A stretch of 64,000 nt of DNA from Escherichia coli. GTDB taxonomy: Bacteria > Pseudomonadota > Gammaproteobacteria > Enterobacterales > Enterobacteriaceae. Shown piece by piece: positions 1 to 9,147 of this stretch (the stretch's first letter is position 1; every line of letters begins with the position of its first letter). The notes under the pieces are model-generated. The model saw nothing but the letters and a program-made list of their open reading frames with translations, did not search any database and had not been told where the DNA came from. The stretch lies in NCBI RefSeq assembly GCF_003991155.1, contig NZ_CP031293.1, one strand, 5' to 3'. The position numbers were made by a program, and so were the translations under genes.

Positions 1-153
1 CAGTAAATCGATAAACACATCTTCACTATCCAGCAGGAACGGGTTCATGCCGGCTTTAATAATTGCTTCTTCACGATAAGCGCGAGTGGTACGTTTTACT
101 GGCTCAATAACACGAATGCGGAACGGTTCAGGGAGATGTTTAAAGTTTTCCAT
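1..153 (-). CDS. tnaA: tryptophanase, N-terminal 51 codons only (gene runs off the window start)
   Basis: Minus-strand translation from ATG at 151-153 gives [51 protein letters not shown], the TnaA N-terminus with one substitution versus the K-12 protein as recalled; an in-frame ATG also lies 15 nt upstream. Confidence 0.85.
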
Positions 154-359
154 TACGTAATCCTTCATTTATTTTAAGGACAGAAAATTACGGAGATATT
201 GCAAATGCAATACCCGATAGTTCGCTAAAATATTTGCAAGAGACATCATTTATAAAAATGAATGATAGTCTTTACAAAAGCAGAAATAAGATATGCCAAA
301 CAGACAGGTTAGATGGAATTCAATCTATTTGACAAAAATGATGGTTACAGAAAGGCAAG

Positions 360-434
360 TTAAGGGTGGTGTTCAACAATCTTGTTGTCGATATTGAACC
401 ATTTTGAGGTCACACATATATGTAAGATATTCAT
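360..434 (-). CDS. tnaC: tna operon leader peptide (24 aa, MNILHICVTSKWFNIDNKIVEHHP)
   Basis: Own translation of minus strand; W12, D16 and terminal P24 are conserved; positions 21 and 23 differ from K-12 TnaC as recalled (DHRP); ~206 nt spacer to tnaA start. Confidence 0.8.
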   Translation of the reverse strand: MNILHICVTSKWFNIDNKIVEHHP

Positions 435-509
435 AATGCACTTATCCTCGAAAGACACGAGGTTACAGTATAATACTCAAGAAATTTGTCTATCCTGAAA
501 TTGTTTAAA

Positions 510-525
510 TGTGAATCGAATCACA
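510..525 (-). promoter_or_regulatory. CRP site TGTGAATCGAATCACA upstream of tnaC, with candidate -10 (TATACT/TATTAT) near 463-478
   Basis: Perfect TGTGA-N6-TCACA palindrome about 75-90 nt upstream of the tnaC ATG; the tna operon is known to be CRP-dependent. Confidence 0.6.
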
Positions 526-1488
526 GTTGGTTATTAGTGATATAAAATGACAATGATTTTGCATCATTAAAAATATTTATCAATTACGTTGATAAAACTA
601 TTACATGCAGGTGTTAATAAATGGTGATAAAAATGGTAAATGACAGAGATGTAATGTTGAAGATGATTCCTTGATGAGAATTATGTTCTACGGAAGTGGT
701 ACATCAACTTTTTGGGAAGGTATATAAATAAAGCAGAATAGATCACGTTTGGCACACATCTGATTACTCATGTAATTAACTAATTTCAGCACGGTTTTTC
801 TTGCTTTTTTAGAGTAATTAATATACCGATGCCCAAGATGAATATCATAAGAAATACTATCAAAATAATGTCTGGAATGAAATATTATACAGATGAATGA
901 TTGCGGTTACCTGATGATTTAAATAATGAATATGTGATTTGCTTGTTATATAAGAAAATTTAAATATTGCCGATAGTGTATTGAATAGTGCCTGCTTAAC
1001 GGGGTCCCCTGTTAAGTTGTCAAGCATGTTTATGAGACTGCTGGGGGATAAAAAGTCCCGGCACACATCCTGCTAACAGGACATCACTGCACTGTCTGAG
1101 CGATAAACGCTTGGTTGTGTCGTATTCCACGGCTCATTTTACGTGTGTAGTACGTTTGGGTATTGGTTTTCGGAGAGCAGCAAAGGCTGACAGGAACAAT
1201 GCCCGTTTGATGAGTTTATTGTCTCGTCTTGGCGGATGTTCGCCACATATTGATGAACCGTAACGCTAGGTAAAAAGGGGAAGCAAGACCCCACTGTTTC
1301 ACTTCAAAAGCCTTGCTTATGTAGAGTGATGAGATGGAGTGCCAGAAGGCCTGGAGTGGCAGAATAACGACTGCGGCATGCGTACCGGGAGCGATCATGG
1401 TTTGTTGTACCAGTGCCTGAGTGATGTCTGCCGCGGGGCGTTTTTCAAGATGAGGCTCAAGCTTGCAGGGCTGCCAGCTTCTTTTCAC

Positions 1489-2883
1489 TTAGCGAAGCCA
1501 GTTTTTCCGGCCTACGGCTACTCCCCGTAAGGCGTTCTCTGCGATGTTGTTGTCGATTTCCACCCAGCCATTGCTGCAGTACACGTTCAGGCCATCCCAC
1601 TGTTTCAGCAGGTATGCGAACGCTTTTGCCGTATCTGAGTGACGCGACAGTGTTTTCATCTGTTGCTGTATCCAGTCATACAGTGACTGCATCAGTGGCG
1701 CGGCTCTGGCTTTTCTTGCCGCCAGACGCTGTTCTGCTGAACAGCCCCGGACCTCTGCCTCGATGGCATACAGTTCACCGATACGCTGCAGGGCTTCCGT
1801 GGTGATGTAGGTGGGCGCTCTTGCATGCACATCGTGGATTTTTCTCCGGGCATGAGCCATACACGCGGCTTCCGTTATTCTGCCGGATTCGTATAACGCC
1901 CGGTAACCACCGTAAGCATCGGCCTGAAGCACACCGCTGTAACCGGCCAGGTGATTTTGTGGATGGATACCTTTCCGGTCCGGACTGTACGCGAACCAGA
2001 CCGCCGGGGGCATCTGTGAACCGGCGTTACGGTCATCACGGACGTAGACCCACAGCCGGGCTGTCCGGGTTTTACCGCTGCCCGGCTCCTGGACCGGGAC
2101 GGGGATATCATCAGCATGGACTTTACCGGGCATCAGCACATACTGGCGCAGGACGTCATACAGCGGCTCCAGCAGTTCAGCAACAGCACCTGTCCAGCGC
2201 CCCAGTGTGGCACGGCTCAGCTCCACTCCCTGACGACGGTATATTTCTGACTGGCGGTATAACGGCAGATGGTCTGCATATTTCCCGGTGACAACATGGG
2301 CCAGAAGCCCCGCTCCGGCATAACTGCGTGCAATGGGTTTTGAAGGTACTGGTGCCTGCACGATATGGTCGCACCGGCAACAGGCCTGTTTCGGACGTTG
2401 TGTTTCGATAACCTTAAAGGCGCTGCTGATAAGCTCCAGTTGCTCTGACACATCACATCCCAGAGAACTGAGTTCACCACCACAGGCAGGACAGCATTCC
2501 TCTTCCGGCCGGATAACCCGGGTTTCACGGGGAAGTGAGGCCGGTAACGGTTTACGGGCTGAAGACTGGCGCAGGGCGGATGGCAGTACCGGGTCATATT
2601 GCTCACCCAGCGTTTCCGCCATTTCTTCCTGAAGTGCGCTGATTCGCTCCTGTGCTTCCTGTATCTGCCGTTCGGTTTTTGCACGAAGTTTTTCTGAGCT
2701 TTTACCGAACTGCATACGTTGCAGTTTCGCAACCAGCGCCTTCAGCCGGTTGATTTCGGAAGCATAAGCCGCCACCCGCTGTGAGAGCAGGCGGTTGTAT
2801 TCAGCCATCTGGCGGATGGTGTCCTGTTGCGTCTGCAACAGTGCCCGCAGGCGGGCGTTCTCATGAGCAAGTGAGGTGTCCAT
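1489..2883 (-). CDS. IS66-family transposase TnpC (orfC), C-terminus apparently disrupted
   Basis: 464-aa ORF with zinc-finger-like CxxC pairs and DDE-region conservation; ends at KNWLR where family members continue; a 90-aa ORF (1216..1488) lies immediately downstream in the same orientation. Confidence 0.75.
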
Positions 2884-2902
2884 ATCCTCACTTTACAACG
2901 GG

Positions 2903-3250
2903 TTATATGCGGATTCCAGCGCGTTCCGTTCGTTTCGGGTGCTTCCAGTTGATACCTTCAAGAAGCATGGATAACTGAGCCGGAGTAAGGTGCACCTTGC
3001 CGTCACGGGTGACTGGCCAGACGAAGCGGCCCCGCTCCAGGCGTTTGGTGAAGAGGCACAGTCCGTCACTGTCAGCCCACAACACTTTTATCTGGTCACC
3101 CCGGCGTCCGCGGAAGATGAACAGGTGTCCGGAGAACGGGTCATCCTTCAGGACGTTCTGAACTTTTGATGCCAGGCCGTTAAAGCCATTTCGCATATCG
3201 GTGATACCTGCAACCAGCCAGATACGCGAACCTGCAGGGAGAGATATCAT
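2903..3250 (-). CDS. IS66-family TnpB (orfB)
   Basis: 115-aa ORF MISLPAGSRIWLVAGITDMRNGFNGLA..., the characteristic IS66 Orf2 N-terminus. Confidence 0.8.
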   Translation of the reverse strand: MISLPAGSRIWLVAGITDMRNGFNGLASKVQNVLKDDPFSGHLFIFRGRRGDQIKVLWADSDGLCLFTKRLERGRFVWPVTRDGKVHLTPAQLSMLLEGINWKHPKRTERAGIRI

Positions 3251-3927
3251 CAGTGGCTGCTCCCTTTTATTTCGCGGATAAGTGTCTGTAATAACGCCGG
3301 CGTCAGTTTACCTTTAAGCCTGAGAGTTCCGGCCGGCAGAACCAGCTCACAACACAGACTGTCGGACGGTGTATTTATCTGCTCTGGTTCCTGTGCGGGG
3401 GCCGGGATTTTATTATCCGGCTCCGGCGTTAACGTCACGGGAAGCAGTGCCGGCATATTTTTTCCGGAAGGCAGCAGGCCACCTTTCCGGTATTGATGGC
3501 GCCAGTTGAAGAGCAGGTTATCGTTGATTCCGTTTTCCCGGGCGATCTGCGCCACACAGGCTCCGGGCTGCAGTGACTGCTCCACTAAGGCGATTTTAAA
3601 CTCATAAGGGAAGTTGGGCCGCCGGGGACGTTTTTTTACCACGGGGGCTTCGGATATAACGGTGCTTTCAGGACGTACGACTGGTACCGTGGAAAATTGT
3701 CCGTAAAGGCAGGCATCAAGTTCCTGCTCCGACATGCCTGCGGGCAAAGGCCACGAAAGGCCAGCTCTCCGAAAGCGCACGAACATACTACAAACTGTTG
3801 ATTTTGGTACACCCAGGCGACGCCCGGCCACAACCCGGGGTAAATGTTCTTCAAAGTGAAGACGTAAAGCTTCAGTGATCCAGGTCCGGTGTTTCATACG
3901 ATAGTGTCCATTAAAAATGATGGACAT
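3250..3927 (-). CDS. chimeric ORF: IS21-family IstA-like N-terminus (HTH + LSWPLPAGMSEQELDACLY) fused to IS66-family TnpA (orfA)
   Basis: C-terminal ~130 aa (PNFPYEFKIALVEQSLQPGACVAQIARENGINDNLLFNWR) is IS66 TnpA-like; N-terminal ~95 aa resembles IS21 IstA N-termini. Confidence 0.55.
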   Translation of the reverse strand: MSIIFNGHYRMKHRTWITEALRLHFEEHLPRVVAGRRLGVPKSTVCSMFVRFRRAGLSWPLPAGMSEQELDACLYGQFSTVPVVRPESTVISEAPVVKKRPRRPNFPYEFKIALVEQSLQPGACVAQIARENGINDNLLFNWRHQYRKGGLLPSGKNMPALLPVTLTPEPDNKIPAPAQEPEQINTPSDSLCCELVLPAGTLRLKGKLTPALLQTLIREIKGSSH

Positions 3928-3976
3928 TATTTTTGTAGAGCCGGAGGAAACAGACCAGACGGTTTAAATGAGCCGG

Positions 3977-4180
3977 TTACTTTCCCTCGCGCCATTGTTG
4001 TCGCCATTTGAACAACAGATTGGCGTTAATGCCATTTTCAAGAGCAAGTTTTGAGATGGATATCCCGGGTTCACAGGAGGCAGCAACGAGCTGCTGTTTA
4101 AATTCGGGAGGATAATTAGGGCAGCCTTTTCGCCTGCCGGGAGTCACATTTTTCTGCATATCTGACACTTTGGTTCCCAC
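3977..4180 (-). pseudogene. second IS66-family tnpA-like fragment (67 aa)
   Basis: PNYPPEFKQQLVAASCEPGISISKLALENGINANLLFKWRQQW is paralogous to the TnpA segment at 3250..3650; far shorter than intact TnpA. Confidence 0.5.
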
Positions 4181-4836
4181 TACTTATTTGGTGGACACCA
4201 CTTTGTCTAATTCGTCAGATTCTGACCAGACGGTTCAGGCTGTACGCTTACGTAGAACGCAGGTTCGTTTCGGTTCAGGATCGCGACAGTGCCCCCTCAC
4301 CTTCAGCTACAGTTCCCATAGAATTTTTTTCAGGTCAGTAATACTGGCTGCTGTTGTTGTCAGGATTTGATAGCTCATAAGCCCCGTTTGTCTTATTGGT
4401 ATAAGAGCATCTTTAAAAGCACTCTTAAAAGTACTCGTGTTGAAAAAACAGCCAGAACAAATGAAGTATGGCTCTTTCCGACAACTCTCTAAAACGTTCT
4501 GTAACACATTCTGAGCGTTTTTACGTCAGTTAGGCACGCCGCTCAGTGCTTCTGAGCGGCCTTGTTGCCGCGATCTGTTGTCCTGATCTTGATAAATGAA
4601 CATCAATACGGCGTTCCGTCAGTGTTTACAATAACTCCCAATTCATAACTACTTTTAACACATTTGTGTGATTCCCCCTTTCTGCTGAAAATATAGTTAT
4701 TTCCAATATAATCAATGAGTTTTATTAATTTGTTGATTTTTTTTTTCATGTTTTTTTTGTGATAATTATCATTTGAATGTGAATGTTGCTCCTGAATAAT
4801 GTTTATCAAAGTTGTCTGGTACGAGGGAGAAATTTC

Positions 4837-6099
4837 ATGGCTATCATCATGGGGATCATCGCTGACGATTTTACTGGCGCGACTGATATTGCCTGCTTTA
4901 TGGCAGAGAATGGTTTTCGGGTTGCGCTGTTGCCCGGTTTGCATGCACTCACGCAGTCATGGGATGAAGAGGCTGATGCAATAGTCATTTCACTGAAAAG
5001 TCGTTCATTACCCGCGAATCAGGCAATTGAGCAGACTTTGCTAAGTTATCATTGGTTGCGTGACTGTGCGGGGGCGCAGCAGATCTATTTCAAATATTGC
5101 TCAACATTTGATTCCACTGCAGATGGCAATATCGGCCCGGTCAGCGATGCACTGATGAAGGTGATGGGCACACCTTATGTCGTGCATTGTCCCGCTTTGC
5201 CCCAAAATGGCCGAACAGTTATCCATGGACATCTTTTTGTTAACGGTATACCCCTTAACGAATCCGGCATGGAAAAACACCCCCTGAATCCAATGACCGA
5301 CACTAACCTGCTGCGCGTACTGGCTGCACAAACCCCCAATAGAGTTGGTAATCTTGATCTGAGGACAGTTCAACAGGGCGAGCAAGCCATCACCACCGCA
5401 CTTTCCCGTTGTCAGGCTGAAGGGAAGCAACACATTATTGTCGATACATTAACTGAAAATGATCTGCAAAGCCTGGCAAATGTATTACGCCATACACCTT
5501 TACTGGCTGGGGGATCCGGACTGGGTGGGGCGTTAGCCGCTTTTTTACAGCAACATCCTTATACGCCAGCCTCCGCGTTTCCCAATCCTGCCAGAACGGT
5601 AATCTTCTCCGGAAGTTGTTCAGTGATGAGTAATCGACAGGTGGATGCTTATAAATCGCATGCAGCCACGCAGTTGCTTGATGTTGCTCGTTGTCTGGAC
5701 GATGGCAATAGATATATCGATCAATTACTTGAATGGACAATTGCGCACATCAATGATCCGCTTGCTCCGTTGATTTACGCCACTCAACCTGCGGATGTGT
5801 TGAAATCTATACAGCAAACCTGGGGTGAACACGCGGCAAGTAAAGCCATTGAACAAACTTTTGCGCAGCTTAGCCAAAAATTGCAGGTCGCGGGTGTCAA
5901 CACTTTTATTGTTGCTGGGGGAGAAACTTCCGGGACTGTAGTGGAAGCGCTAAATGTGAAACGGCTAACAGTGGGGAGCACTATTACGCCGGGCGTACCA
6001 TGGGTTTTTTCGGCAGAACCGCCCCTGGCACTGGCGCTGAAATCTGGCAATTTTGGGGAGCCTGATTTTTTCATTAAGGCTCAGGAGCATGGATTATGA
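4837..6099 (+). CDS. four-carbon acid-sugar kinase family protein (DUF1537; OtnK/YgbK-like 3-oxo-tetronate kinase homolog)
   Basis: N-terminal IADDFTGATD motif and overall length (420 aa) typical of DUF1537 kinases; RBS GAGGGAG upstream; stop overlaps next start. Confidence 0.75.
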   Translation: MAIIMGIIADDFTGATDIACFMAENGFRVALLPGLHALTQSWDEEADAIVISLKSRSLPANQAIEQTLLSYHWLRDCAGAQQIYFKYCSTFDSTADGNIGPVSDALMKVMGTPYVVHCPALPQNGRTVIHGHLFVNGIPLNESGMEKHPLNPMTDTNLLRVLAAQTPNRVGNLDLRTVQQGEQAITTALSRCQAEGKQHIIVDTLTENDLQSLANVLRHTPLLAGGSGLGGALAAFLQQHPYTPASAFPNPARTVIFSGSCSVMSNRQVDAYKSHAATQLLDVARCLDDGNRYIDQLLEWTIAHINDPLAPLIYATQPADVLKSIQQTWGEHAASKAIEQTFAQLSQKLQVAGVNTFIVAGGETSGTVVEALNVKRLTVGSTITPGVPWVFSAEPPLALALKSGNFGEPDFFIKAQEHGL

Positions 6100-6734
6100 G
6101 TGAACTCATCGAACAAAAATTACGTGAACAACTCGTCTATTACGGGCGTTCGCTCTTTATGCGCGGTTTCAGTAGTGGCGGTTCCGGCAATATCAGCGTC
6201 AAACTGGCTGAAGACCGTTTTTTGGTCACGCCGACCAATTCCTGTCTTGGCGAGTTAGATAGTGAAAGAGTGAGTCTTATCGATATTCATGGCAACCATA
6301 TCAGTGGTGATAAGCCGTCAAAAGAGGTGCCTATGCATCTTGCCTGGTATCGACATCGTCCGAACTGTGGAGCGGTGGTACATCTGCACTCGCCATGGCT
6401 GACGGCACTTTCGTGTTTACCTTGCACAACACCAGAGAATTGCTTACCGCCGCTCACTCCCTATTACGTGATGCGTGTGGGGAAATTACCATTATTGCCT
6501 TATTTCAAACCAGGACATGAGGATATCGCTACGGCATTAAGCCATATAGCGGCCGACTCTACCGCAGCTCTGTTGGCGAATCATGGCCCCGTTGTCAGCG
6601 GAAGAACATTGCGCGAAGCGGTATTTAATGCCGAAGAGCTGGAAGACAGTGCCCGTATCTGGCTGACCTTAAAACCACTTGGCTATGTTCCTCTTTCGGC
6701 AAAAGACATCGCTGAACTGGAACAGGCCAGATGA
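6096..6734 (+). CDS. class II aldolase/adducin-family protein (OtnC/YgbL-like decarboxylase/aldolase)
   Basis: 212 aa, SGGSGNISVK and HLHSPW metal-binding-type motifs; ATGA overlap with upstream kinase gene. Confidence 0.75.
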   Translation: MSELIEQKLREQLVYYGRSLFMRGFSSGGSGNISVKLAEDRFLVTPTNSCLGELDSERVSLIDIHGNHISGDKPSKEVPMHLAWYRHRPNCGAVVHLHSPWLTALSCLPCTTPENCLPPLTPYYVMRVGKLPLLPYFKPGHEDIATALSHIAADSTAALLANHGPVVSGRTLREAVFNAEELEDSARIWLTLKPLGYVPLSAKDIAELEQAR

Positions 6735-6749
6735 TAACGAGGTGAGAGG

Positions 6750-7556
6750 ATGATACCCGAGCAAAGGCGAGACTTTATTTACCGCTATGTCCATGAGAAA
6801 AACGTTGCTTCATTTAATGAACTGGCTGAGTTGATGAGCGTTTCGCATATGACAGTGCGTCGTGATATTCAATTACTGGAAGAAGAAGGCAAAGTTATTA
6901 CCATAAATGGCGGCGTTAAGCTGAACAACCAACTTAAATTGGAGTTACCGTGGCGAGAAAAAGCTGAACTGCATCATGATATTAAGCGTGACATGGGGCA
7001 GCTTGCTGCGATGTTGATCGAACCCGGGCAGACACTCTATTTAGATGCCGGAACCTCATTATTTGAGGTCGCAAAAGCAATCGTTGCCAGCCAGTGCTTT
7101 AATCTCACTATCGTGACAAATGATTTCTCTATCAGCCATTACCTGATGGATATGCAACATATCACGCTTTACCACACCGGGGGATTGGTAGATCAACGCA
7201 ATCGTTCTTGTTTGGGGAAAAGTGCAGCTGATTTTCTGCGCACGATTAATATCGATGTTGCATTTCTTAGCTCCTCTTCATGGGATACACAAAGAGGAAT
7301 GTCAACACCAAATGAAGGTAAAGCTACAGTGAAAGAGGCGGCGCTTACGGTCTCCCGTCGCCGCGTATTAGTGTGTGATAGCAGTAAATTCGGTAAATAC
7401 GGAATGTTCCATATATGCGAGCTCAGCCAATTGACCGATATCATTTCAGATAACCAGTTGCCTTTATCGGCGCAGGAAAGCATTACACAGCTGGGCGTGA
7501 AATTACATCTGGTTAATAGCCGGGAGGGAACGCAGCATGTTGAAGCTGGCGGCTAA
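6750..7556 (+). CDS. DeoR-family transcriptional regulator
   Basis: N-terminal HTH (FNELAELMSVSHMTVRRDIQLLEEEGKV) and C-terminal sugar-phosphate-binding-like domain. Confidence 0.8.
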   Translation: MIPEQRRDFIYRYVHEKNVASFNELAELMSVSHMTVRRDIQLLEEEGKVITINGGVKLNNQLKLELPWREKAELHHDIKRDMGQLAAMLIEPGQTLYLDAGTSLFEVAKAIVASQCFNLTIVTNDFSISHYLMDMQHITLYHTGGLVDQRNRSCLGKSAADFLRTINIDVAFLSSSSWDTQRGMSTPNEGKATVKEAALTVSRRRVLVCDSSKFGKYGMFHICELSQLTDIISDNQLPLSAQESITQLGVKLHLVNSREGTQHVEAGG

Positions 7557-8313
7557 TCTCGACTGGTTGTTCACAGAACTGCCGATGTCTGCACGGTTTC
7601 ATGCAGCCAGACGGGAGGGGTTTCGTGCTGTTGAAGGAATGTTTTTCTGTCAGCATTCTCTGGATATGCTGAGAATTGCGCAGCAAGAATCGGGAATGAG
7701 CGTGGTGCTGATGAATGCTCCGGCAGGTGACTGGCTACGAGGTGAGCGTGGCCTGGCTGCACTTCCTGGCCGCGATGATGAATACCTGAACAGTTTGCTC
7801 ATTGCCCGCCGATATGCAGGGACGCTGGGATGCAGGCAGGTTCATGTTATGGCGGGCCTTCGGGATCACTCTGTGACAGAAGATGAACAACTGGAGTTAC
7901 TGGTTAATCGCTTGTGCATAGCCTGCGATGTGCTGGCGGAAAAAGATATTACAGTATTAATCGAACCCCTGAATTCTGAAGATATGCCTGGCTATATTAT
8001 TAATAGCCTTCCTCGAGCAAAAGATATTATCCGGCGGGTTTCTCACCAAAATATTGGTTTGCAGTTTGATATTTATCATTGCCAGAAAATTCATGGTAAT
8101 GTCACCCAAAATATAGATAAATATTTATCAATAGTTAAGCATTTTCAGATTGCCTCTGTGCCTGGTCGCCACGAACCAGGTTCTGGTGAGCTAAATGATA
8201 CGTGGATATTAAATTTTATTAATCAAAAAAACTTCCAGGGCTGGATTGGCTGTGAGTATAAACCTTCCACACTGACAACCGAGTCATTACGCTGGATGAA
8301 ACCATATTTATAA
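7537..8313 (+). CDS. Hyi/OtnI-like TIM-barrel isomerase (hydroxypyruvate / 2-oxo-tetronate isomerase family)
   Basis: 258 aa; strong similarity to E. coli Hyi as recalled (AGDW..GERG, LIEPLN, GW(I/V)GCEYKP, LRWM.PY). Confidence 0.8.
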   Translation: MLKLAANLDWLFTELPMSARFHAARREGFRAVEGMFFCQHSLDMLRIAQQESGMSVVLMNAPAGDWLRGERGLAALPGRDDEYLNSLLIARRYAGTLGCRQVHVMAGLRDHSVTEDEQLELLVNRLCIACDVLAEKDITVLIEPLNSEDMPGYIINSLPRAKDIIRRVSHQNIGLQFDIYHCQKIHGNVTQNIDKYLSIVKHFQIASVPGRHEPGSGELNDTWILNFINQKNFQGWIGCEYKPSTLTTESLRWMKPYL

Positions 8314-8334
8314 AATCTTTTTCTGGAGGAAAAT

Positions 8335-9147
8335 ATGTCGGATACCGTCATAATTTCGTTGGCACCTGTGGCCGCAGACTGCACCAGAGTCATACCCGAA
8401 GAATTGGCGCAGGAAATTTTGGCTTGCGTTGAATATGGAGCAGCAATTGTTCATTTACACGTTCGTGATAAGCAAGGCAAGTTAACGCCAGATACAACCG
8501 ATTTCCAGTCAACCATTGATCTCGTCAGACATCAATCAGACTTAATTATTCAGGCTTCTACGGGCGGAGTCTCTGCCATGTCAATAGCCGAGCGTTGCGC
8601 GCCTCTGGACTGCCCTGGCGTTGAAATGGCGTCGCTGAATGTAGGGTCGGTGAACCTTGGTGATGCCGTCTACGCTAATCCAACACCGGATGTCGAATAT
8701 TGTTCACAGCAAATTACCGCGCGTAGTATTGTTCCTGAATTTGAAGTGTTTGAAATTGGAATGGTTAATAATATTTTAACCCTCAATGAAAAGATAAAAT
8801 TCAGAAACCCCATGTTATTTAATATTGTACTTGGTCATAGAGGAAGTTCTCCGGCGACAATAGATGCATTAATTGCGATGCGCAGTATGATCCCGCGAGA
8901 TGCATTATGGGGTATTACTCACTTTGGCAGAAAGAATTTTGATGTTATTGCTGCTGCGGTAGCTATGGGAGCTAGCGAGGTCAGAATTGGTTTTGAAGAT
9001 AGTTATTATTTAAGTGCAGAGGAGATGGCGGAACAAAATTATCAGCAAGTTAAAAAACTCGCCAGACTTATTCGTAGTATGGATAAACAAGTGGCCTCAC
9101 CGGAAATTGCCCGACGGATATTAAATATCCCAATCCGGCAGCAATGA
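8335..9147 (+). CDS. DUF849 / BKACE-family beta-keto acid cleavage enzyme
   Basis: 270 aa with HLHVRD motif characteristic of 3-keto-5-aminohexanoate cleavage enzyme family; good RBS (GGAGGAAAA). Confidence 0.7.
   Translation: MSDTVIISLAPVAADCTRVIPEELAQEILACVEYGAAIVHLHVRDKQGKLTPDTTDFQSTIDLVRHQSDLIIQASTGGVSAMSIAERCAPLDCPGVEMASLNVGSVNLGDAVYANPTPDVEYCSQQITARSIVPEFEVFEIGMVNNILTLNEKIKFRNPMLFNIVLGHRGSSPATIDALIAMRSMIPRDALWGITHFGRKNFDVIAAAVAMGASEVRIGFEDSYYLSAEEMAEQNYQQVKKLARLIRSMDKQVASPEIARRILNIPIRQQ

Follow-up and report, generated by a model that had tools for sequence, protein, structure and literature searches.

The IS66 family of insertion sequences, reportedly defined with IS679 by Han et al. 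in 2001, is said to combine the gene order tnpA-tnpB-tnpC with inverted repeats of ~20-30 bp that start with GTAA and with 8-bp target duplications. The reference copies used here show all of these traits. The ISCro1 reference is an intact copy of 2699 bp (L002) with two GTAA-type inverted repeats, the right one (IRR) reading GTAAGCGACTCGTCAGAACCGT, and with the 8-bp target duplication TATTATCC. The ISEc8 reference, from E. coli O157:H7 where this IS66-family element is common, has 2442 bp and GTAAGCG inverted repeats (L003), and PGAP labels its transposase 'IS66-like element ISEc8 family'. ISCro1 was first named in Citrobacter rodentium, where there are 24 copies (PMC3072379). Complete ISCro1 elements nested in ISEc8, with 8-bp duplications, are found in strain 203740 (L004), OkiPb01717 (L005), E24377A (L006) and plasmid pPRO_A-1443-6M-A_1 (L007).

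We analysed a stretch of 64,000 nucleotides of E. coli DNA (the window), in which positions 1040-4251 are, with a probability of about 93%, a decayed and immobile stack of three known insertion sequences: ISEc8, ISCro1 and an IS110-family element. The ISCro1 copy in the window has the same left inverted repeat (IRL) as the known element, identical TnpA and TnpB proteins and the order tnpA-tnpB-tnpC, but it lacks the last 216 bp, IRR and TnpC residues 463-523 and is thus a dead copy. From ISEc8 the window has the GTAAGCG IRL and TnpA codons 1-60; the element is preserved over its first 11% only, without tnpB, tnpC and IRR. The four nestings elsewhere involve the same elements in the same relative orientation, with ISCro1 likewise inserted in the left part of ISEc8; however, they are complete and lie at ISEc8 nt 63-70, 260-267, 286-293 and 449-456, whereas the insertion in the window follows nt 271/272. 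The latter is an event independent of the other four, and was truncated later.

The ISEc8 and ISCro1 remnants

The features are collected in Table 1. The DNA of the ISEc8 and ISCro1 segments matches catalogued IS elements at 99.6-99.7% identity, so these features are not a chance pattern, and the PGAP annotation labels the same parts as found here. The names ISCro1 and ISEc8 are assigned from PGAP family labels together with structural criteria.

Table 1. Insertion sequence features in the window (all on the minus strand)
Feature	Position	Strand	Description
IS110-family remnant, degenerate	1040..1497	-	3' half of transposase gene; frameshifts and ~138 bp internal deletion
ISCro1, truncated	1498..3980	-	nt 1-2483 of 2699; last 216 bp including IRR missing
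ISCro1 tnpC (DDE transposase), truncated	1489..2883	-	464 aa: 462 native codons of 523, 2 foreign codons and stop
ISCro1 tnpB, intact	2903..3250	-	115 aa; PF05717 E 4.7e-40; NF033819 E 5e-38
ISCro1 tnpA, intact	3250..3927	-	225 aa; native long-form IS66 accessory protein TnpA
ISCro1 left inverted repeat (IRL)	3955..3980	-	GTAACCGGCTCATTTAAACCGTCTGG; outer end 3980
ISEc8 remnant	3981..4251	-	nt 1-271/272 of 2442-bp element; base 3980 ambiguous, shared with ISCro1 nt 1
ISEc8 tnpA, truncated	3977..4159	-	codons 1-60 of 126; ATG 4159
ISEc8 left inverted repeat	4222..4251	-	GTAAGCGTACAGCCTGAACCGTCTGGTCAG; outer end 4251, read from sequence

Window positions 4251-3980 correspond to nt 1-272 of the intact ISEc8 of O157:H7 with 99.6% identity. 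Independent ISEc8 copies from many genomes match 3980-4251 only, their matches ending at 4251-4253, and the left inverted repeat agrees with the IRR of the intact element at 22 of 30 positions. Within the remnant, a 67-aa ORF (3977-4180, minus strand) is a fragment of ISEc8 tnpA: its GTG at 4180 lies upstream of the ATG, and its stop codon, TAA at 3977-3979, is contributed by the GTAAC terminus of ISCro1. The fragment aligns to residues 1-60 of ISEc8 TnpA (a 60-aa 'transposase' for PGAP, WP_032165252.1) and matches HTH_Tnp_1 and IS66 TnpA model positions 73-133, with NF047595 and NF038385 matched in part. The full ISEc8 TnpA reaches 97.7 bits on NF047595, the short-type model (cutoff 74), and matches NF038385 at positions 82-189 only. 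Sequence identity, the GTAAGCG repeat and the short TnpA all place this segment in ISEc8, of which it is a left-end remnant only.

The ISCro1 copy (window 3980-1498) shares 99.7% identity with nt 1-2483 of the intact reference over 2483 bp, and in copies 99.7% identical to the window element PGAP names the transposase 'IS66-like element ISCro1 family'. Divergence from the reference starts directly beyond ...CCGGTTAC (plus strand). Pfam and NCBIfam recognize tnpA, tnpB (PF05717) and tnpC (DDE_Tnp_IS66) in three consecutive minus-strand ORFs, in agreement with PGAP. As to the pair of 5'-GTAA terminal repeats, IRL is present (GTAACCGGCTC..., outer end 3980) and IRR is absent, since the sequence of the element breaks off after nt 2483 of its 2699; the copy is therefore a remnant of an IS66 member and not a complete member. 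The tnpB gene is identical to that of the reference copy and, as read from the sequence, its start and the stop of tnpA overlap (TGATG). In TnpC, identity to the reference ends past residue 462, compared with 523 residues in the intact copy. In the intact protein, Pfam finds the domain DDE_Tnp_IS66 at residues 186-472 and, behind it, DDE_Tnp_IS66_C at 479-516; the window TnpC is entirely devoid of the latter and of the last ~10 residues of the former, and PGAP describes its gene as 'incomplete; missing C-terminus'.

Each element has kept a single inverted repeat and the transposase has lost its C-terminal domain, so that neither ISCro1 nor ISEc8 can transpose. A reading made from the letters of the window and their ORFs (the sequence-only reading) had already pointed to a disrupted tnpC 3' end in a probably immobile element, to a GTAAGCG terminus (the reverse complement of 4245-4251) and to a second, 67-aa TnpA-like fragment beside an IS66-type terminus; all of these are found, the TnpC having 464 aa instead of 523 and the fragment being the truncated ISEc8 tnpA. 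The orphan tnpA and tnpB genes, intact and apparently translationally coupled, could still be expressed; a promoter scan of 3200-4400 found no sigma-70 promoter-like sites, which makes their expression uncertain.

The N-terminal module of ISCro1 TnpA and IS21-family IstA

Residues 13-76 of the 225-aa TnpA (window 3700-3891), with the motif ...AGLSWPLPAGMS..., form an IstA-like N-terminal module. The N-termini of IS21-family IstA proteins from ISSso4 and Bradyrhizobium align with these residues without gaps over 62 columns, which include the SWPLP motif and the next helix, and have a G-L-S-W-P-L-P motif in common with them. In tblastn against plasmids, annotated istA genes were matched at E-values of 5e-7, 1e-3 and 4e-4. 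BLASTP gave 38% identity to the Bradyrhizobium IstA over 93 aa (E 5e-12) and 36% to the ISSso4 IstA over 55 aa (E 4e-9). In the reverse direction, the first 100 aa of IstA matched positions 5-88 of NF038385, the long-form TnpA profile, at E 4e-14 and 3.6e-16. An exhaustive search of protein representatives with the module returned 512 clusters, and the listed matches of at least 150 aa were long TnpAs and IstA-like proteins with overlapping E-values.

A word-indexed protein search with the module yielded nothing beyond close fragments from E. coli and Shigella and was uninformative on distant relatives, and a PDB sequence search with TnpA gave nothing significant. A PDB profile search found only generic SorC/DeoR-type and IS3-type (2jn6) helix-turn-helix (HTH) proteins, the solved IstA going undetected. 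A Foldseek comparison of the TnpA model with the PDB had no match at E<=0.001, with IstA structures 8b4h and 8q4d ranked third and eighth at E 0.5-0.8. This non-significant structural result, together with weak matches of the module to sigma-70 region 4 and SorC/DeoR-type HTH domains, is what one might expect if the likeness reflected generic HTH similarity or convergence. We regard this as very improbable, because the likeness, in the gap-free alignment, is not confined to the HTH but takes in the SWPLP motif and the next helix, because the TnpA model is matched by IstA N-termini at 1e-14 to 1e-16 but by sigma factors at 1e-7 or worse, and because long TnpAs and IstA-like proteins are intermingled in the cluster search. 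As judged from these alignments, the resemblance is a real and old homology at the level of the module (about 36-42% identity), which is family-wide and not the product of a recent local event.

The module is the only part of IS21 that was found. The IS21 model NF033546, which would report the rve-type DDE domain of IstA, had no match at E<=10 in the 225-aa ORF or in the first 101 aa of that ORF. There is no istA catalytic ORF in the ORF list for window positions 1-9000, PGAP annotates no IS21 feature, and a gene for the helper ATPase IstB is absent from both the ORF list and the PGAP annotation. Unlike IstA, ISCro1 TnpA lacks a DDE catalytic domain and comes without an IstB partner, and the identity between the two is only 36-42%. 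Since the N-terminal module is common to the whole IS66 subfamily with long TnpAs, it does not make this locus an IS21 element.

How the module came to be in both families is a matter on which we advance a tentative suggestion only: the long-form TnpA of the ISCro1/NF038385 group may stem from an exchange of a ~65-residue HTH-SWPLP module with an IS21-family IstA. If so, we would conjecture that this module, and not the canonical HTH_Tnp_1, might give the protein an IstA-like recognition of the element's own ends. A search of the accessible literature found no paper linking IS66 TnpA with IstA; that the homology is undescribed, or that it is functionally relevant, is likewise conjecture. In practice, IstA N-termini score higher on NF038385 than on NF033546, so that short fragments of either protein are open to misnaming.

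The junction at 3980 and the origin of the 225-residue ORF

At window position 3980 the terminal base of ISCro1 adjoins ISEc8 nt 272, cutting ISEc8 tnpA past codon 60. Break points were read from 60 sampled records out of the 5609 that match region 3100-4400: the sampled matches either break at 3980-3985, the end of ISCro1, or span only 3980-4251, the left end of ISEc8. Independent ISCro1 copies from many records also stop at 3980-3985. By these matches, the nested pair is a truncated ISCro1 within the left end of ISEc8, both of the IS66 family. As the four complete nestings elsewhere show, it is nothing unusual for ISCro1 to transpose into ISEc8, and this has happened repeatedly. The right junction of the window insertion is deleted; 8-bp duplications are known from the intact copies (L002 and L004-L007).

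The two elements are 71-78% identical across parts of tnpB and tnpC, and recombination between such related IS66-family elements could in principle join them, all the more so as a target duplication is not readable at 3980 with the right junction gone. We nevertheless hold recombination to be very unlikely. The break falls on the exact terminal nucleotide of ISCro1 (the outer end of IRL), which is a signature of transposition; no similarity is detectable at the junction between ISEc8 around nt 272 and ISCro1 nt 1; and complete ISCro1 insertions in ISEc8 carry 8-bp duplications. Transposition of ISCro1 into ISEc8 remains the preferred reading of the junction.

A few BLAST matches run over 3980 in a single piece (H226, which is L005; H228, which is L007; and H230) and were considered as a natural continuous element. 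For H226 and H228 this was dismissed, as their ISCro1 insertion points in ISEc8 differ from that in the window by 5 bp and 21 bp and the alignments are gapped.

The 225-aa ORF itself is residue for residue the TnpA (WP_001339397.1) of the intact 2699-bp ISCro1, and PGAP gives it the same name. It matches NF038385 with E 1.1e-88 and 295.8 bits (curated cutoff 150), the alignment covering profile positions 1-189 of 190 and protein residues 13-206; both the score and the full-length coverage are those of a long-form TnpA. A canonical short module occupies residues ~96-225 (window 3253-3642), with boundaries taken from the alignments; HTH_Tnp_1 lies at residues ~102-159 and the C-terminal part matches IS66 TnpA models. 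The AlphaFold model confidently shows two separate three-helix HTH units (mean pLDDT 79.7). The two-module architecture is kept in homologues whose N-terminal modules are only 38-47% identical and which pass the NF038385 cutoff (P0117, P0128, P0168 and P0170). The long-form TnpA subfamily is therefore made up of an HTH-SWPLP N-module followed by a canonical short TnpA, with HTH_Tnp_1, a C-terminal beta-hairpin and a helix. Matches to region 3100-4400 come from 5609 E. coli records, with an identity of >=99% in 4417 of these. On this evidence, the ORF is an ordinary intact ISCro1 TnpA and not a chimera born at this locus.

The sequence-only reading had located the ORF correctly (3250-3927, minus strand) and had recognized its IstA-like HTH and SWPLP N-terminus, which the significant tblastn and BLASTP matches to IstA bear out, but it took the ORF for an IS21 IstA N-terminus fused in frame to an IS66 TnpA by successive insertions. 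Nested IS remnants there are, although both are of the IS66 family, ISCro1 in ISEc8, with no IS21 DNA. The fusion was to be abandoned if an intact reference IS had a TnpA with the same N-terminal extension, and the intact ISCro1 has one. We give next to no credence to a locus-specific chimera, arisen by insertion of IS66 into IS21 or the reverse: true as the resemblance of residues 13-76 to IstA is, down to the SWPLP motif, the identical ORF lies inside an ISCro1 that is intact, has its two inverted repeats and is flanked by a target duplication, it recurs in thousands of records, the curated equivalog spans its full length, distant homologues have the same architecture, the best IstA matches are too dissimilar (~36-42% at the protein level) for a recent DNA exchange, and the ORF list and the PGAP annotation contain neither an istA catalytic region nor istB. 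More generally, a protein with the N-terminus of one family and the C-terminus of another is not necessarily a local fusion; in the present case this is normal for a whole IS66 subfamily.

The proposed deletion, the IS110-family remnant and the genomic setting

The truncated end of ISCro1 adjoins the IS110-family remnant at 1497/1498. PGAP annotates the remnant as an IS110-family pseudogene, 'missing N-terminus'. In blastn its nucleotide identity to transposase genes of the IS110 family, carried by plasmids of Salmonella and Shigella, is 73-74%, and the match, which takes in only ~600 bp at the 3' end of an intact gene of 1197 bp, reaches window position 1498-1499. The similarity to the transposase gene assigns the remnant to the IS110 family at the DNA level; Pfam and NCBIfam scans of its frameshifted translations had no matches, and DNA-level blastn was needed.

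We propose the following order of events. ISEc8 (IS66 family, 2442 bp) was there first, and ISCro1 (2699 bp) then transposed into it in the same orientation, two steps that we regard as established. A later deletion with its junction at 1497/1498 would have taken ISCro1 nt 2484-2699, that is, IRR and the last 61 TnpC codons, along with what was left of ISEc8 (~2170 bp) and the IS110-family element's 5' half. The deletion is suggested by its end points, both partners being cut internally.

An inverted-repeat pair at 1130-1157 and 3948-3975 (28 nt, 71% complementary) was considered as a displaced ISCro1 IRR and dismissed: it has no GTAA terminus, lies inside IS110-like sequence and is at chance level.

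The biology of the locus is ordinary; its insertion sequences are catalogued ones, present as dead copies, and correct labels for them are already given by PGAP as standard annotation. The cluster is located close to the tna-proximal edge of an E. coli genomic island that is rare, being present in only 21 of 5426 complete E. coli genomes, and, marking the tna-proximal side of this island, it may serve as a lineage marker.

TnpA of ISCro1 and the N-terminal extension

All of the features listed in the sequence-only reading are present in the window (see table). An IS66 TnpB of 115 aa (PF05717, E 4.7e-40) and an IS66 TnpC ORF of 464 aa lie downstream of the 225-aa ORF, and the plus strand ...ctgtacgcttac finishes at 4251, which corresponds to GTAAGCGTACAG on the minus strand.

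Features in and around the IS cluster
Feature	Window position	Strand	Source or placement
tnaCAB operon, tnaC	~360-434	minus	one side of the IS cluster
Degenerate IS110-family remnant	1040-1497		directly beyond 1498; nucleotide match and PGAP
225-aa ORF	3250-3927	minus	ORF listing
67-aa GTG ORF	3977-4180	minus	ORF listing
otnK, aldolase, DeoR regulator and hydroxypyruvate isomerase cluster	4260-8260		other side of the IS cluster

The 225-aa ORF had been read as an IS21 IstA N-terminus fused to IS66 TnpA. Its residues 13-206 match the curated NCBIfam equivalog NF038385 ('IS66-like element accessory protein TnpA') from profile position 1 to 189 of 190 (E 1.1e-88, 295.8 bits; curated cutoff 150 bits). 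The N-terminal 101 residues by themselves hit this model at positions 1-83 (E 1.6e-28), and a profile search with them gave no IS21 transposase match at E<=10. In the PGAP annotation the ORF is an intact tnpA whose product, WP_001339397.1, is also that of an intact ISCro1 lying between ybbP and rhsD of strain ETEC6. This reference element measures 2699 bp, with inverted repeats GTAACCGGCTCATTTAAACCGT... and GTAAGCGACTCGTCAGAACCGT... and an 8-bp flanking duplication TATTATCC, and its TnpA and TnpB are residue-identical to those in the window. Four diverged homologues from the exhaustive search (clusters P0117, P0128, P0168 and P0170) have N-terminal modules that are 38-47% identical, keep the two-module layout and score 174-279 bits with NF038385, above the cutoff. 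Since the intact ISCro1, the full-length NF038385 match and the diverged homologues all carry the N-terminal extension, TnpA has it naturally, and the proposal of an IS21 element with a chimeric ORF falls. Window 3100-4400 is matched in 5609 E. coli records, at >=99% identity in 4417 of them.

A module common to IS66 TnpA and IS21 IstA

The resemblance to IstA was itself correctly seen. A tblastn search of plasmids with TnpA residues 11-90 retrieved annotated IS21-family istA genes from Bradyrhizobium (E 5e-7, 41.7% identity) and ISSso4 (E 4e-4), and a Deinococcus ORF whose only annotation is 'integrase' (E 6e-5); pairwise BLASTP of TnpA with two IstA proteins gave E values of 5e-12 and 4e-9. 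For two genuine IstA proteins (L008:2471-2770 and L009:2480-2779), the N-terminal 100 aa match NF038385 positions 5-88 with E values of 4e-14 and 3.6e-16, whereas their matches to the IS21 model NF033546 are weaker (8e-7 and 4e-6). Because IstA N-termini score better on the TnpA model than on their own, truncated IstA fragments could receive a wrong IS66 TnpA name in automatic annotation.

The exhaustive search with the module yielded 512 clusters at E<=1e-3; among the matches listed, those of >=150 aa carried either the TnpA C-module or IstA downstream sequence, and none carried both. The TnpA and IstA groups align gap-free over 62 columns, covering the HTH, the G-L-S-W-P-L-P motif and the next helix, and of ISCro1 TnpA only residues ~96-225 have a counterpart in the short ISEc8 TnpA. 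The AlphaFold model of ISCro1 TnpA (mean pLDDT 79.7) predicts two separate three-helix units, one at residues 16-54 plus helix 67-75 and the other at residues 108-147, after which come a flexible linker and, at the C-terminus, a beta-hairpin with a helix; fold and sequence searches with this protein returned no informative match among solved structures. The similarity is thus that of an old module common to the two IS families, at ~36-42% identity, and is no evidence for an IS21 element at this locus. Discussion of this homology between long IS66 TnpA and IS21 IstA was not found in the searchable literature, and it is the sole mildly new angle of the analysis; the IS cluster is ordinary and already annotated correctly by standard pipelines. 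In several NCBI records, TnpA N-module fragments (P0021, P0023, P0024, P0031, P0037, P0041 and others) are named 'IS66 family insertion sequence element accessory protein TnpB, partial'; this seems to be a misnomer, as the fragments show 80-89% identity to TnpA residues 11-101.

Insertion of ISCro1 into ISEc8

The successive insertions proposed earlier are borne out, including the truncated second tnpA, with ISCro1 and ISEc8 (both already catalogued) as the partners instead of IS21; the interpretation as a whole is therefore partly supported, being right on nested remnants and immobility and wrong on IS21 and the chimeric ORF. In BLAST comparisons with the reference elements, ISCro1 nt 1-2483 correspond to window 3980-1498 (99.7%) and ISEc8 nt 1-272 to window 4251-3980 (99.6%), base 3980 being ambiguous. 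ISCro1 begins at its nt 1 and ISEc8 is broken at nt 272, which makes ISCro1 the incoming element and ISEc8 its target. Independent copies bear out these ends: among 60 sampled records (of the 5609), the majority of matches belong to ISCro1 copies and end at 3980-3985, or belong to ISEc8 copies and span 3980-4251 only. The reference ISEc8 of O157:H7 has 2442 bp, GTAAGCG inverted repeats and a short 126-aa TnpA; the 67-aa fragment contains codons 1-60 of this TnpA, with ATG at 4159, and its stop is a TAA within the ISCro1 GTAAC terminus. The IS66 family was reportedly defined by Han et al. in 2001 by tnpA-tnpB-tnpC, GTAA termini and 8-bp duplications.

Four other loci (L004-L007) hold a complete ISCro1 in ISEc8, flanked by duplications of 8 bp; the ISEc8 positions are nt 63-70, 260-267, 286-293 and 449-456. 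Together with window 3980, at least five different sites are seen (L004:1684-4381, L005, L006 and L007), in the same orientation and none beyond the first ~460 bp of ISEc8; no obvious consensus is seen among the 8-bp targets. ISCro1 could prefer the left part of ISEc8, subject to strong ascertainment bias from a query made of ISCro1 IRL and the ISEc8 left end. In Citrobacter rodentium, ISCro1 is an expanding element with 24 copies (PMC3072379).

Truncation and the surrounding island

The window TnpC follows the 523-aa reference to residue 462 and then reads L-R-stop, in agreement with the disrupted 3' end noted earlier; the last ~10 residues of DDE_Tnp_IS66, the entire DDE_Tnp_IS66_C domain and the ISCro1 IRR are lost. 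The adjoining IS110 remnant aligns, at 73-74% nt identity and with an internal gap of ~138 bp, to IS110-family transposase genes carried by plasmids of Salmonella and Shigella; of these intact 1197-bp genes it matches the 3' ~600 bp. PGAP calls it a frameshifted pseudogene with a missing N-terminus. It has no close match in complete E. coli genomes other than the island carriers and gives the impression of an old IS fragment of foreign origin that came with the island. Since ISCro1 and the IS110 element are both cut internally at the junction, a deletion would have removed the right end of ISCro1, together with the other ~2170 bp of ISEc8 and the IS110 element's 5' half. The cluster is immobile, as had been suspected, since each element keeps a single inverted repeat and the transposase is truncated. 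No further ISCro1 or ISEc8 sequence occurs elsewhere in the 64-kb window, and the 2016C-3878 chromosome has a single place matching 3100-4400. The tnpA and tnpB genes are intact and share a TGATG overlap, and no sigma-70-like site turned up in window 3200-4400 in a simple promoter scan.

Window 1-6000 is found at 100% identity in the E. coli 2016C-3878 chromosome and in 20 further complete genomes of the species. Window ~530-1497 and the otnK side are present only in the same 21 of 5426 complete genomes, always upstream of tnaC. The DNA on both flanks is thus a rare lineage-specific island, with the IS cluster near its tna-proximal edge and a right extent probably beyond 8260. One of the 21 carriers, strain CDE6306 (NZ_CP191552.1), has an additional ~1.2-kb ISKpn26 (IS5-like) in the otnK (four-carbon acid sugar kinase) region, equivalent to window ~4260-8260.
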